The position numbers and the translations under genes were made by a program. This document shows positions 2,642 through 18,941 of a DNA stretch of 42,107 nt, one piece after another. The DNA is from Lawsonibacter sp. Lineage in GTDB: Bacteria > Bacillota > Clostridia > Oscillospirales > Oscillospiraceae. Location: assembly GCA_022794495.1 (NCBI GenBank), contig JAAWEX010000001.1:1-42107 (forward strand). The letters run 5' to 3'. Under the pieces are notes generated by a model, which did not search any database, was not told the origin of the DNA, and worked only from the letters and a program-made list of their open reading frames with translations. Position 1 is the stretch's first letter. The number at the start of each line of letters is the position of its first letter.

Positions 2642-3985
2642 ATGCACGATAACTACAACCTGGACCAGCTGATGGAGCTGGTTCAGGAGCGGAAATTCCG
2701 CGCCCTGCGGGAAATTCTAGTGGAAATGAACGAGGTGGACATCGCCGAATTTTTGGATGAGCTGGAGGTAAACCAGGAGATTTTGGTCTTCCGCCTGCTG
2801 CCAAAGGCCATGGCGGCGGAGGTCTTCGCCTATCTGGAGGAGGACCAGGAGAAGCTGATCGGCGCCCTCAGCGACAAGGAGCTGCGCGAGGTGCTGGACG
2901 AGCTGTATCTGGATGACACGGTGGACCTGATCGAGGACCTGCCCGCCAACCTGGTCAGCCGCATCCTGCGCAACACCGACGCCTCCACCCGCAGCCAGAT
3001 CAACCAGCTGCTCAACTACCCCAAGGACTCCGCCGGCTCGCTGATGACCACCGAGTTTGTCTATCTCCACCCCAGCAACACGGTTGAGGAGTCCTTCGCC
3101 CGCATCCGGAAGGTGGGCCTGGACAAGGAGACGGTATATACCTGCTATGTCACCGCTAACCGGGTGCTTCAGGGCGTGGTAACGGTAAAACGGTTGCTCC
3201 TGTCCACCTACGAGACCAAAATCAGCGATATCATGGAGACCAACGTGGTGTCTGTCCCCACCCACGAGGACAAGGAGGAGGTCGCCCAGCTCTTCTCCAA
3301 GTACGACCTCACCGCCCTGCCCGTGGTGGACGGGGAGGACCGGCTGGTGGGCATCATCACCGTGGACGACGCCATGGACGTTATGGAGGAGGAGGCCACC
3401 GAGGACATCGAGAAGATGGCCGCCATCCTGCCCACCGACAAGCCATACTTCCAGACCGGCGTAGTGGAGACCTGGAAGCACCGCATCCCCTGGCTGCTGC
3501 TGCTGATGATCTCCGCCACCTTTACCGGCACCATTCTGGGCTTTTTCGAGGAGGCTCTGGCCGCCAACGCCGCCCTCACCCTGTTCATCCCTATGCTTAT
3601 GGACACCGGAGGCAACTCCGGCGGACAGGCGTCAGTGACCATTATCCGCGCTATGTCCCTGGGGGATGTGGAGTTTGCCGACTGGCTGCGGGTAATCTGG
3701 AAGGAGCTGCGGGTATCTGTCCTGTGCGCCCTCACCCTGGGGGTGGTGGTCTTCGGCAAGGTGATGCTGCTGGACCGAAAGGATGCGACCGTGGCGTCGG
3801 TGGTAGCGCTGACCATCTTCTTTACCATCGTCATCGCCAAGCTCATCGGCTGCACCCTGCCTATGCTGGCCAAGCGCCTGGGCTTCGACCCCGCCGTCAT
3901 GGCCTCCCCCTTTATCACCACCGTGGTGGACGCCCTGTCCCTGCTGGTCTACTTCGCCATCGCCACCCAGATTCTGGGACTATAA
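2642..3985 (+). CDS. mgtE: magnesium transporter MgtE
   Basis: MgtE N domain, CBS pair (SAGSLMTTEFV, GIITVDDAMD) and TM motifs (RIPWLLLLM, MDTGGNSGGQ, DPAVMASPFITTVVD); RBS GAGGAGG before the ATG at 2642. Confidence 0.95.
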   Translation: MHDNYNLDQLMELVQERKFRALREILVEMNEVDIAEFLDELEVNQEILVFRLLPKAMAAEVFAYLEEDQEKLIGALSDKELREVLDELYLDDTVDLIEDLPANLVSRILRNTDASTRSQINQLLNYPKDSAGSLMTTEFVYLHPSNTVEESFARIRKVGLDKETVYTCYVTANRVLQGVVTVKRLLLSTYETKISDIMETNVVSVPTHEDKEEVAQLFSKYDLTALPVVDGEDRLVGIITVDDAMDVMEEEATEDIEKMAAILPTDKPYFQTGVVETWKHRIPWLLLLMISATFTGTILGFFEEALAANAALTLFIPMLMDTGGNSGGQASVTIIRAMSLGDVEFADWLRVIWKELRVSVLCALTLGVVVFGKVMLLDRKDATVASVVALTIFFTIVIAKLIGCTLPMLAKRLGFDPAVMASPFITTVVDALSLLVYFAIATQILGL

Positions 3986-4270
3986 GCGACGCCCCCGGCC
4001 TGAAGCCGGGGGCGCTGTACTGTCAAAAAGCACCCCAGTGCAAAAAGCATACTCAAAAAGCTCTACCTCCTGGATTGCGCCGGCCTGTGCCTGCAAGTCC
4101 TGCATCTCCTCAAATTTCTTGTATTCTTCAGGGGACAACAGTGTTTCAAAATGAGTAACCATCTTGTCAATCTTATCGGTGAGCACAGCAAATTCGGGGT
4201 CGCGTATGCGTCTGCGCTCCCATGGGCTGATATTTCCATAATAAAGTTCGTGTATCATGGATTCCCTCAT
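3980..4270 (-). CDS. small hypothetical protein, DUF6809-like
   Basis: MIHELYYGNISPWE...LLSPEE...ELFEYAFCTGV pattern typical of this Clostridial family; RBS AAAGGGGG; C-terminus runs into the mgtE terminator. Confidence 0.6.
   Translation of the reverse strand: MRESMIHELYYGNISPWERRRIRDPEFAVLTDKIDKMVTHFETLLSPEEYKKFEEMQDLQAQAGAIQEVELFEYAFCTGVLFDSTAPPASGRGRRL
3988..4015. terminator. terminator hairpin after mgtE
   Basis: CGCCCCCGGC-CTGAA-GCCGGGGGCG. Confidence 0.7.
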
Positions 4271-4350
4271 GGCCCATCCCCCTTTCTATTGCAGGGCCTT
4301 TCCAGAATATTTTCCACGTTTAAACCGTCCTTTCTTTTTTCCGATATTGC

Positions 4351-4462
4351 TTGAAAGGAAAGCTGACGCATGGTATAATATTTACGTCGCTTTTGCCTTT
4401 TGGCAATAGTCGGATGAGGAAGTGGCGTGTTTCTTTGATCGGTGGGCGCCACTTCCTTCTAT
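4351..4462 (+). ncRNA. candidate antisense sRNA (promoter plus terminator) in RHH cassette 1
   Basis: TTGAAA(4351-4356)-17-TGG TATAAT(4374-4379), then hairpin AGGAAGTGGCG...CGCCACTTCCT followed by TCTATTT. Confidence 0.55.
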
Positions 4463-4638
4463 TTCCCCTCGAGGTCGTCGTGTACCTTATGGACACCACG
4501 CCTGACTATTTCCGCCTTTGATACTTCGAGTTTTTTAGCACACTCGTCCAGCCTTTCGGCTGTTTCTTTATCAAGGCGGACTTTCAGGGAAATGTCTTTG
4601 GGATTATCGGTAGGACGACCCATTTTTTTACTCCCCAA
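4459..4638 (-). CDS. CopG/Arc-like ribbon-helix-helix protein
   Basis: KKMGRPTDNPKDISLKVRLDKETAERLDECAKKLEVSKAEIVRRGV; RBS GAGGTG before a TTG; start codon uncertain. Confidence 0.7.
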   Translation of the reverse strand: MGSKKMGRPTDNPKDISLKVRLDKETAERLDECAKKLEVSKAEIVRRGVHKVHDDLEGK

Positions 4639-4659
4639 TATCATCACCTCACTTTTTGG

Positions 4660-4698
4660 GGTCGCTTATATTATAACTTACCGACGCCGTTAAGTCAA
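4660..4698 (-). promoter_or_regulatory. sigma70 promoter of RHH cassette 1 with imperfect inverted-repeat operator
   Basis: Minus strand TTGACT-17-TATAAT; GGCGTCGGTAA and TAAGCGACCCC flank the -10 as an imperfect inverted repeat. Confidence 0.7.
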
Positions 4699-17456: not shown

Positions 17457-17498
17457 TTTGTAATCAGCAGGTCGGAGGTTCGAATCCGCCCTCCTCCA
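17457..17498 (+). repeat. att-like partial tRNA direct repeat (Thr/Tyr chimera)
   Basis: 17457-17488 matches tRNA-Thr 5552-5583 at 31/32 nt; 17477-17498 matches the tRNA-Tyr 3' end at 21/22 nt. Confidence 0.8.
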
Positions 17499-18067: not shown

Positions 18068-18331
18068 CTAAAATAATTGTGAATTTTTTGGGGCGTGGAA
18101 AATGGCCGGACATCCCCCCATTGATTGCCGCACCGTGTCCAGACAGCAATCCAGCTGCTTTCGGAGGATTTTGTCGGAATCGGACAGATATTCGCAGATC
18201 GCGTCTAACCCATCCACATCGGGGTCCACCGCCTGGTCCAGCCCTCTGGAAATCAGAAACACCGCGTGGATACCCCTGGAGATTCGGTTCACTGTCACAT
18301 CCAAATCAAGTAATTGTTCCTGTAACGTCAT
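18068..18331 (-). CDS. small hypothetical helical protein (cargo of RHH cassette 2)
   Basis: 87 aa with strong RBS AAGGAGG. Confidence 0.65.
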   Translation of the reverse strand: MTLQEQLLDLDVTVNRISRGIHAVFLISRGLDQAVDPDVDGLDAICEYLSDSDKILRKQLDCCLDTVRQSMGGCPAIFHAPKNSQLF

Positions 18332-18341
18332 GATTTCCTCC

Positions 18342-18447
18342 TTGATTTTTCCCCGGAGGTATGGCATAATCAGATTTGTCATTCCTCCGGGGATGGTGTT
18401 TTAGAGTGTTGGCGGCTTTGCTAGGGGTGCCAGCACTCTATTTTTTC
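18342..18447 (+). ncRNA. candidate antisense sRNA (promoter plus terminator) in RHH cassette 2
   Basis: TTGATT(18342-18347)-17-TGG CATAAT(18365-18370), then AGAGTGTTGGC...GCCAGCACTCT hairpin followed by a T tract. Confidence 0.55.
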
Positions 18448-18614
18448 ATGTCCTGCTCCACAAGATCAATTCCCTTTTCAATTACCTGTGTTCGGGATAC
18501 ACCAAGCGTATCTGCGCAGCGCTGCAATTTGGCCGCTGTCTCTTTGGTCAACCGCAGTCCAAGATTGACGCTTTTGGTAATCTCCTTGTGGGGCCGGCCT
18601 GTACGCGGAGACAT
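18438..18614 (-). CDS. CopG/Arc-like ribbon-helix-helix protein (not in the ORF track)
   Basis: Hand translation MSPRTGRPHKEITKSVNLGLRLTKETAAKLQRCADTLGVSRTQVIEKGIDLVEQDMKK (58 aa); RBS GAGGTG. Confidence 0.75.
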   Translation of the reverse strand: MSPRTGRPHKEITKSVNLGLRLTKETAAKLQRCADTLGVSRTQVIEKGIDLVEQDMKK

Positions 18615-18630
18615 TCCATCACCTCACTTC

Positions 18631-18673
18631 TTGCTCCAGCAATAATTATAATCTTGCTCGGGCAAAAAGTCAA
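18631..18673 (-). promoter_or_regulatory. sigma70 promoter of RHH cassette 2 with two TTGC-N4-GCAA operators
   Basis: Minus strand TTGACT-17-TATAAT; TTGCTCCAGCAA and TTGCTCGGGCAA flank the -10. Confidence 0.75.
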
Positions 18674-18685
18674 GAGGAAATCTGA

Positions 18686-18734
18686 AAAAAGAAGTAACCG
18701 CCCTCGCGTCCAACCAAGGCGGTTACTTCTTTTT
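18686..18734. terminator. bidirectional terminator
   Basis: AAAAAGAAGTAACCGCC...GGCGGTTACTTCTTTTT. Confidence 0.8.
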
Positions 18735-18861
18735 GGGTAACTAAGTTTTGGGGACTAACCGTCTGCCGGCAGCGCCCTTTCTATATTATTAGTATAGTCG
18801 CATGGTTTGGTTTTGTCAATACCCTGTTCCCTCGGGGAGTATCCTTTTCGCAGATTTTAAT

Positions 18862-18941
18862 GTAGGGGCCGCCGCCCTCGGCGGCCCGCCAAAACGCAAT
18901 GTCTCCCCTAGTTTCGGGCCGCCCAGGGTGGCGGCCCCTAC
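18862..18941. repeat. GTAG-type REP doublet (REPIN-like)
   Basis: GTAGGGGCCGCC/GGCGGCCCCTAC terminal inverted repeat with internal hairpins. Confidence 0.65.

Follow-up and report, generated by a model that had tools for sequence, protein, structure and literature searches.

Arc and Mnt are ribbon-helix-helix (RHH) proteins, and Arc represses its own synthesis. In phage P22, the arc-sar-ant genes lie in the immunity I region (immI). According to the available text of PMC2629481 and PMC13397905, the P22 "ant moron" combines a small repressor, an antisense RNA and an antirepressor-type gene among the late genes; the phage versions of the cassette reported here match it in order and position, lying either behind a terminase gene (loci L038 and L088) or within the tail genes (Streptococcus phage Javan119). 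In the plasmid pMV158 (pLS1), the segment Pcr-copG-rnaII-repB likewise contains an RHH autorepressor, a countertranscript and a downstream target, and the parts of PMC5703833 and PMC5717011 that treat it state that the countertranscript blocks target translation and that de-repression occurs on entry into a new cell; in our cassette, cotranscription of the corresponding genes is suggested by their arrangement. For the RNAI molecules of pT181 and pSK41, the relevant part of PMC5703833 describes binding of an upstream antisense RNA that results in a stem closing the ribosome site, as is predicted for some but not all copies of our cassette. Finally, the type I toxin-antitoxin loci covered in the available text of PMC2701414 resemble the cassette in having a small ORF that an antisense RNA silences in cis (predicted in our case) and in occurring in many chromosomal copies.

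We analyzed a cassette that probably works like P22 arc-sar-ant and pMV158 copG-rnaII-repB while belonging to neither. It lies in a window of 42,107 nucleotides of Lawsonibacter sp. DNA, and coordinates below refer to this whole stretch. The features of the cassette are as follows.

18645-18673, minus strand: sigma-A-type promoter of the RHH-cargo operon, TTGACT-17-TATAAT, 11 of 12 matches
18654-18665, no strand: putative operator 1, TTGC-N4-GCAA, within the -35/-10 spacer
18631-18642, no strand: putative operator 2, TTGC-N4-GCAA, covering the predicted start site
18618-18628, minus strand: ribosome-binding site (RBS) of the RHH gene, as read from the sequence
18438-18614, minus strand: RHH repressor gene, 58 aa, PHROG 876 family, beta-strand SVNLGLR
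18376-18446, plus strand: predicted antisense RNA of about 70 nt with two hairpins (fold prediction, ends approximate)
18402-18446, plus strand: 3' hairpin and U run of this RNA, an intrinsic terminator with a variable loop (CUUUG here)
18379-18396, plus strand: 5' hairpin of this RNA with a cUCCGg tetraloop (fold prediction)
18350-18393, minus strand: long mRNA hairpin (ON state), whose 3' arm contains the anti-SD CCUCC at 18359-18355
18342-18370, plus strand: extended -10 promoter of the antisense RNA, TTGATT-17-TGgCATAAT, whose -35 box abuts the cargo SD
18337-18342, minus strand: cargo Shine-Dalgarno sequence (SD) AGGAGG, the predicted partner of the anti-SD once the antisense RNA is bound
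18125-18331, minus strand: core of the cargo gene (family A), 69 aa, an acidic helical hairpin
18068-18124, minus strand: 18-codon read-through tail, in this copy only, with identical letters in DNA contigs of other runs

The preliminary description had assigned to this minus-strand cassette a promoter, paired TTGC-N4-GCAA palindromes, a 58-aa RHH gene, a hairpin with CAAAG in its loop and a reverse extended -10 promoter, and all of these parts were found where it had placed them. The 87-aa cargo that it listed is present as an ORF but consists of a 69-aa family protein and an 18-aa local tail; the orthologues L002-L004 terminate after residue 69, and the tail in the window arises from a lost stop. 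The two palindromes lie 23 bp apart and flank the -10 box (family D5), and a promoter scoring ≥10 was found upstream of 59 of the 65 scored RHH genes. The 58-aa ORF matched PHROG 876, "transcriptional repressor", at E 1e-11 and Pfam RHH_1 at E 0.0046, the latter under the curated cut-off, and its dN/dS among the four copies at the window's site was 0.10. Contigs from three of four other runs (X15, X17 and X18) reproduced the cassette with 0 differences, and X1 with 2, indicating that it is not an assembly artefact. RNA-library contigs from two studies also cover the cassette; because they show neither strand nor level and their ends (18608, 18636, 18657 and 18719) scatter, these ends mark no start site.

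Next, the distribution of the cassette was analyzed. An exact pattern search returned 51 stretches in the GTDB genome collection, with titles mostly from Oscillospiraceae, and 5 in IMG/VR. Profile matches, including relatives' loci, numbered 89, of which 70 were distinct and 68 remained after removing two partial self-matches; we refer to these 68 as element-selected copies. A covariance model of this set detected 1-16 copies in each of 16 of the 40 other genomes of the genus and none in 24, in a scan that scored 84 candidates per genome and in which several genomes had supplied the model; across the order, 8 of 150 genomes matched. The window genome gave six model matches in total, and its five further copies of the intergenic element each lie downstream of an RHH-type gene. 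Several unrelated cargo families occur in the cassette family. The proposals of a diversified family and of swapped cargo, originally drawn from two cassettes, are borne out by these copy numbers and cargo families and by the beta-strand types described below. The other of these two cassettes is:

3980-4698, minus strand: first cassette, comprising an RHH gene with an S-K-R strand, a longer intergenic part and a DUF6809 cargo

The two cassettes had been called paralogous. They are indeed related, but only distantly: their RHH proteins are 38% identical, and the RNA model gave the intergenic part of the first cassette 19.9 bits (E 0.006), compared to 126 bits for the second. Orthogonal regulation of the cassettes, which had also been proposed, is suggested by their sequences. 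The DUF6809 cargo of the first cassette runs into the host terminator, and the cassette is flanked by two similar terminators, of which two relatives have one; this arrangement fits either an insertion or a recombinational deletion. Its interior had no match in the 40 other genomes, and an empty site was found in G002 and G005.

The intergenic region was then examined for an antisense RNA. Promoter-like sites numbered 4 per kilobase at the cassette, compared to 1.3 ± 1.1 in shuffled sequences. Folding of the 71-nt plus-strand RNA gave -32.7 kcal/mol (z -5.3), and the hairpin at 18402-18440, with CAAAG in its loop, is followed by a T run on the plus strand. In the element-selected copies, the predicted RNA measured 66-76 nt in 67 of 68, and cUNCGg was present in 56 of 68, inside a predicted loop in 52. 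The antisense strand folded better than its complement in all 68 copies and by shuffle z-score in 60 of 67, and the terminator hairpin showed 62 G-U wobbles on the antisense strand versus 16 on the mRNA. Covariation, which a real RNA had been expected to display, was observed in the cassette hairpins: two-sided changes amounted to 138 cells, compared to 40.5 in shuffled and at most 46 in slid alignments, and in the terminator stem they occurred at 11 of 11 pairs, which are not independent events because the arms come in a few related types.

The reverse promoter is conserved in the 68 copies by construction because the selection patterns contained it, and the test was therefore repeated on phage contigs chosen by the RHH protein alone (the best 80 of 553 and the best 80 of 91 loci, giving 94 distinct phage units). 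A reverse promoter scoring ≥10 in a fixed window was found in 71 of these 94 units, whereas 20 shuffles gave a mean of 6 and a maximum of 10, and its -10 box lay 54-86 nt past the RHH stop in 67 of 69 units. Thus, RHH homologues elsewhere, to which the preliminary description had pointed as the place where its claim might fail, do in most cases carry the promoter. An Rfam scan gave no match at gathering score in the window, an E-value scan returned only sub-threshold hits, and 20 related loci contained no cassette match and one HEARO match nearby. Literature searches found no description of the cassette. The candidate RNA HMP2_11368, given as 62 nt, from Firmicutes and near Bro-N in the available part of PMC8040213, may be a member and could be a prior listing of the cassette RNA. 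About four tandem repeats of the 5' part of the antisense target were seen in one cassette, L296 (about 1700-1800).

The predicted antisense RNA stops about 35 nt short of the cargo SD, and folding of the mRNA suggested a switch. In the long hairpin, GGAGG of the 5' arm is predicted to pair with CCUCC of the 3' arm, leaving the SD free; the stem (18350-18366/18377-18393) ends 7 nt ahead of the SD. When the part covered by the antisense RNA is blocked, CCUCC is predicted to pair with the SD instead. The energy needed to open the SD in the window copy increased from 0.4 to 7.7 kcal/mol with 20 nt of downstream sequence and from 3.7 to 6.2 kcal/mol with 35 nt. On blocking the target in phage units, it increased in 53 of 54 (2.9 to 9.2 kcal/mol) and decreased in none, and SD closure was 9.4 kcal/mol versus 3.1 kcal/mol with the spacer shuffled. 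Among the element-selected copies, with 35 nt of coding sequence included, the energy rose in 42 of 67 and fell in 16 of 67. The switch was absent in 19 of 68 copies, which have CGCC instead of CTCC (1.9 kcal/mol versus 2.7 kcal/mol shuffled). The anti-SD:SD (OFF) stem showed one pair with two-sided changes in 8 cells, a level matched by 27 of 500 shuffles, and the long hairpin showed no clear strand preference (54 versus 41 wobbles) and could partly be a DNA palindrome. We counted 21 phage units in which a U run follows the SD-closing stem, as it does after stem-loop IV of pT181 in the part of PMC5703833 that describes it. At the SD, AAATCAAG has a complementary stretch in cargo codons 7-10 (TTACTTGATTT; window 18298-18350, minus strand), as is the case in many family A genes; the match may reflect a further pairing that closes the SD, or may simply follow from a conserved L-D-L.

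The RHH beta-strand and the operators were compared across units. Each RHH type has its own palindrome pair, one in the promoter spacer and one past the -10 box. Forty beta-strand triplets occurred among 137 units, and the operators tracked the strand: with pairs matched on protein identity outside the strand, operator similarity for same- versus different-triplet pairs was 0.60 versus 0.49, 0.65 versus 0.50 and 0.66 versus 0.49 in the 50, 60 and 70% bins, values that include some miscalled promoters and are partly due to shared ancestry. Operator 1 was retained in 11 of 11 units with an N-G-R strand. The NNR, SQR, EKR, MRR, NRR and SKR types were found, with visibly similar operators, in both chromosomes and phages. 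An IMG/VR scan using only operator 2 and the RBS of the window returned three matches, all of them phage cassettes; in each, the RHH strand was of the (N/S)-G-R type, the RNA element was present and the small ORF differed from that of the window. The RHH and operator type of the window recur at the prfB site and in the array L291 (G184:C23, about 460-1750), where three RHH-RNA units follow one another in tandem, each with a different operator; in the first two, a 4-codon mini-ORF takes the place of the cargo.

The phage units further indicated the origin of the cassette. Their operons are ordered as RHH repressor, antisense RNA, small gene and antirepressor. We scanned 65 of the 87 first downstream ORFs, leaving out near-duplicates, further RHH genes and clearly unrelated genes, and found Bro-N, ANT, Rha, AntA or ORF6N/C domains in 27. 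The ORF after a small first ORF (n = 34) had an antirepressor-type domain in 15 cases, HNH/NUMOD4/AP2 in 5 and none in 14. The small first ORFs are helical and often overlap the next gene by start and stop. Javan119 carries the RHH gene, the element, an 83-aa ORF and an annotated putative antirepressor. The window genome itself has a complete version behind a PBSX terminase (L038, G000:C50, 759-2289), with a 127-aa ORF and a Bro-N protein; at the same prophage site and with the same RHH, L088 (2271-2743) has a family A cargo and no antirepressor, a pair that reads as a cargo swap at a conserved element. On another phage contig (L094, 1320-2607), an IscB gene with a HEARO RNA lies directly downstream of the cassette. 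The phage origin and the predicted regulation are well supported at the sequence level, and the window cassette can be read as the regulatory head that such an antirepressor operon has in phages, standing on the chromosome with the antirepressor missing. The earlier view of paralogous cassettes captured the family but missed both the phage antirepressor origin and the loss of the antirepressor.

The cassette was next compared with the described systems. As in P22 immI, the RHH gene stands first in its operon and has predicted operators on its own promoter. Several features differ from P22. No match to the Rfam sar family was obtained, and there is no divergent mnt; upstream of the cassette are a terminator, an ORF-less unit and pgi. 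The window copy has no downstream antirepressor, which is present only in phage relatives, and the cassette operators are diversified into at least 40 types. Unlike Sar, the predicted RNA starts near 18376 and leaves the SD at 18337-18342 uncovered, with refolding predicted. The Sar sequence listed in PMC13397905 starts on what appears to be the ant start and ribosome site. The RNAII of pMV158, in the excerpts of PMC5703833 and PMC5717011, has 48 nt and a promoter inside repB, whereas the cassette RNA has about 70 nt, two hairpins and a wholly intergenic promoter. A plasmid replication module was rejected: no Rep domain was detected among 70 cargos and 34 following ORFs, the cassettes examined had neither a Rep gene nor an origin, and the RHH had no plasmid match. 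In contrast to pT181 and pSK41 as treated in the available part of PMC5703833, the cassette has no replication function and is coupled to an RHH autorepressor, which is absent from those plasmids.

The cargo was then characterized. By its position, it appears to be the small first gene of a phage operon. Family A has 157 members at 90% clustering and 83 matches among 50% representatives, a few of the latter being long unrelated proteins, and it was present in 6 of 300 genomes of the bacterial family. AlphaFold predicted two long helices forming a helical hairpin (pLDDT 91). The family is acidic (median pI 4.4), and a membrane segment was found in none of 47 members (best 19-residue hydropathy ≤1.4). 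This acidic cargo without a membrane-length hydrophobic stretch, together with an RHH gene in the operon, differs from the type I toxin-antitoxin loci in the text of PMC2701414 available to us. No Pfam or PHROG family was assigned to 43 family A members, and Foldseek against PDB and BFVD gave no match at E ≤ 0.001 for the cargo model; Rop and similar folds appeared only at E > 4, as any hairpin would give, and were rejected. The best ESM Atlas matches were unnamed clusters (0.90-0.92), and a "Derepression protein" at 0.79 was discarded as under the useful range. Two IMG/VR pattern queries for the family A cargo returned nothing, and the cargo profile matched phage small ORFs weakly (best E 0.012 versus 0.16 for reversed controls). 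At L041 (G000:C25, 1218-1762), a family A gene lies beside a divergent Arc-family gene (PF03869) in a mnt-like arrangement without the antisense element.

The standalone chromosomal copies were examined by a neighbour census with NCBIfam, in which many neighbours received no name. Copies often lay behind housekeeping genes, and those named included pgi, prfB, carB, groEL, purD, PFOR, eno, galT, obgE, lexA, ispF, sigH and addA; no integrase was among the named neighbours, and phage genes occurred only at two terminase-linked copies. Several chromosomal sites are common to 4-7 copies from related genomes. At the pgi site, the cassette is present in G002, G005 and G021, the site is empty in G001, G003, G009 and G010, and another gene occupies it in G016 and G019. 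Contigs of two runs skip 18090-18755 (short side 29 letters). In G016 and G019 (L009 and L017), the site holds a different islet with a gene for a secreted-looking protein, which is preceded by its own hairpin and reverse-promoter-like leader. A transposon or MITE was rejected at the pgi site, where neither a constant target duplication nor terminal repeats were present. Downstream of the groEL-site cassette, L021 and L053 have a gene for a GTPase resembling EF-G and tetracycline-protection proteins (under curated cut-offs).

Damage to the copies was uneven. Of the 68 element-selected copies, 10 had a broken or missing cargo (9 flagged and one with a shifted tail) and none a broken or missing RHH gene, an asymmetry equally expected if unrepressed cargo were harmful. 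In L290, most of the RNA and the cargo start are deleted with the RHH gene intact, and in L002 the RHH promoter has no -35 box. Pooled pairwise dN/dS in seven site groups (36 copies, which are not independent) was 0.21 for RHH and 0.26 for cargo; since intact cargo genes are also under purifying selection, the cargo is not mere baggage.

We propose, with slightly better than an even chance, that the cassette is a chromosomal phage-operon head, with RHH autorepression and antisense-driven refolding, which hosts retain for silencing phage operons in trans. With high probability, RHH dimers bind both palindromes flanking the -10 box and repress their own promoter, and each beta-strand type would read its own operator. 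The reverse promoter very probably yields the two-hairpin RNA of about 70 nt. It is likely that this RNA leaves the SD uncovered and pairs with the 5' arm of the long hairpin, so that the freed CCUCC would close the SD; where a U run follows, the SD-closing stem could also act as a terminator, as in pT181. In a naive cell, an incoming phage would then express the small gene and the antirepressor in a short burst. More tentatively, and at somewhat less than an even chance, the part selected on chromosomes may be the repressor, acting in trans on phage cassettes with the same operator, with the cargo as an accessory; by analogy, this step would resemble P22 immunity I blocking ant of a superinfecting phage. 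An autorepressed RHH protein may, however, be too scarce to act in trans. Among reasons for retention, we rank a repressor library first, followed by a non-membrane toxin, a domesticated cargo and neutral relics.

It is rather unlikely that the cassette is a doubly silenced toxin module, in which the 69-aa cargo inhibits growth, the RHH protein and the antisense RNA serve as antitoxins, and units persist as addiction or abortive-infection modules firing when host transcription stops. In P1 and P4, Icd or Kil likewise lie ahead of the antirepressors, and the small helical ORFs standing first in phage operons are in keeping with such a role, as are the ten cargo losses against no repressor loss, the cargo dN/dS of 0.26, the multi-copy, patchy and polymorphic presence, and the double negative control. 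However, all 47 members analyzed lack a membrane segment, no toxin family or fold was matched, and 19 of 68 copies have lost the switch, mostly with the cargo still intact. Furthermore, RHH types swap freely over the same cargo, which argues against RHH as the protein antitoxin of a type II system.

It is less probable still that the RHH-RNA head has become a constant-level expression device for a cargo that serves the host, perhaps by binding a repressor or SOS regulator. The same sites are held across several species (carB, purD/PFOR, groEL, prfB, pgi and ispF), purifying selection on the cargo was observed in each of the seven site groups (0.13-0.35), the family A gene at L041 pairs with an Arc-family gene without the RNA element, and the anti-SD loss in 19 copies would permit expression. 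Against these, no more than 6 of 300 genomes of the bacterial family yielded family A and 24 of 40 genus genomes had no element match, the cargo is frequently broken, and the neighbours are unrelated. Finally, that the copies are neutral relics, scars of prophages behind housekeeping genes deleted to a short, decaying, silent head, is improbable, since the clear phage origin, the commonness of broken cargos, insertions and deletions, and the losses of the cargo stop in the window and of the -35 box in L002 are outweighed by dN/dS well below 1 for RHH and cargo at dS 0.3-1.7, by the RHH gene being broken in none of 68 copies, by compensatory changes and by the lack of an integrase among named neighbours.

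Retention of phage-operon heads for silencing in trans, our preferred reading, could extend to gut Oscillospiraceae keeping captured heads as a dispersed library of programmable repressors, a possibility that we regard as doubtful. If so, each 600-bp unit would contribute one RHH protein, with three beta-strand residues serving as a code for the operator of one phage class, and a genome's units, by number and type, would determine which phages fail to express their antirepressor along with the rest of their first-burst genes. The library would then amount to a hitherto undescribed form of anti-phage control that can be read from sequence, and it would offer Gram-positive synthetic biology a natural set of at least 40 orthogonal pairs of repressor and operator with one antisense switch apiece. 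The logic of an RHH autorepressor combined with an antisense RNA is classic, and the RNA family is new to Rfam; it appears to regulate the Bro-N/Rha/AntA "antirepressor" genes that are so widespread in Firmicutes phages, and our searches found no paper on how these genes are controlled. The pairs of beta-strand and operator constitute a directly testable RHH recognition code, and the standalone copies raise the question of whether hosts collect phage repressor specificities as a defence or harbour a new class of small non-membrane toxins.

Several minor observations were made around the cassette. Around their -35 boxes, the two opposed promoters match each other in inverted orientation over 24 nt at 79% (18332-18355/18659-18682). 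Just upstream, the ORF-less unit (18680-18819, minus strand) has a TTGACA-17-TATACT promoter, a short leader and a 17-bp perfect hairpin; it is present in L002 too and is retained in alleles without the cassette. It resembles what would be left of a Clostridial small-peptide locus, namely its leader and terminator, after deletion of the peptide gene. A GC-rich inverted repeat at 18862-18941 with 27-nt arms has about 28 related places in the genome, as a REP-like intergenic repeat would. A fragment at 17457-17494 resembles the 3' half of a tRNA and gave no ARAGORN call; read contigs from other organisms extend it into a full tRNA-like 5' part.
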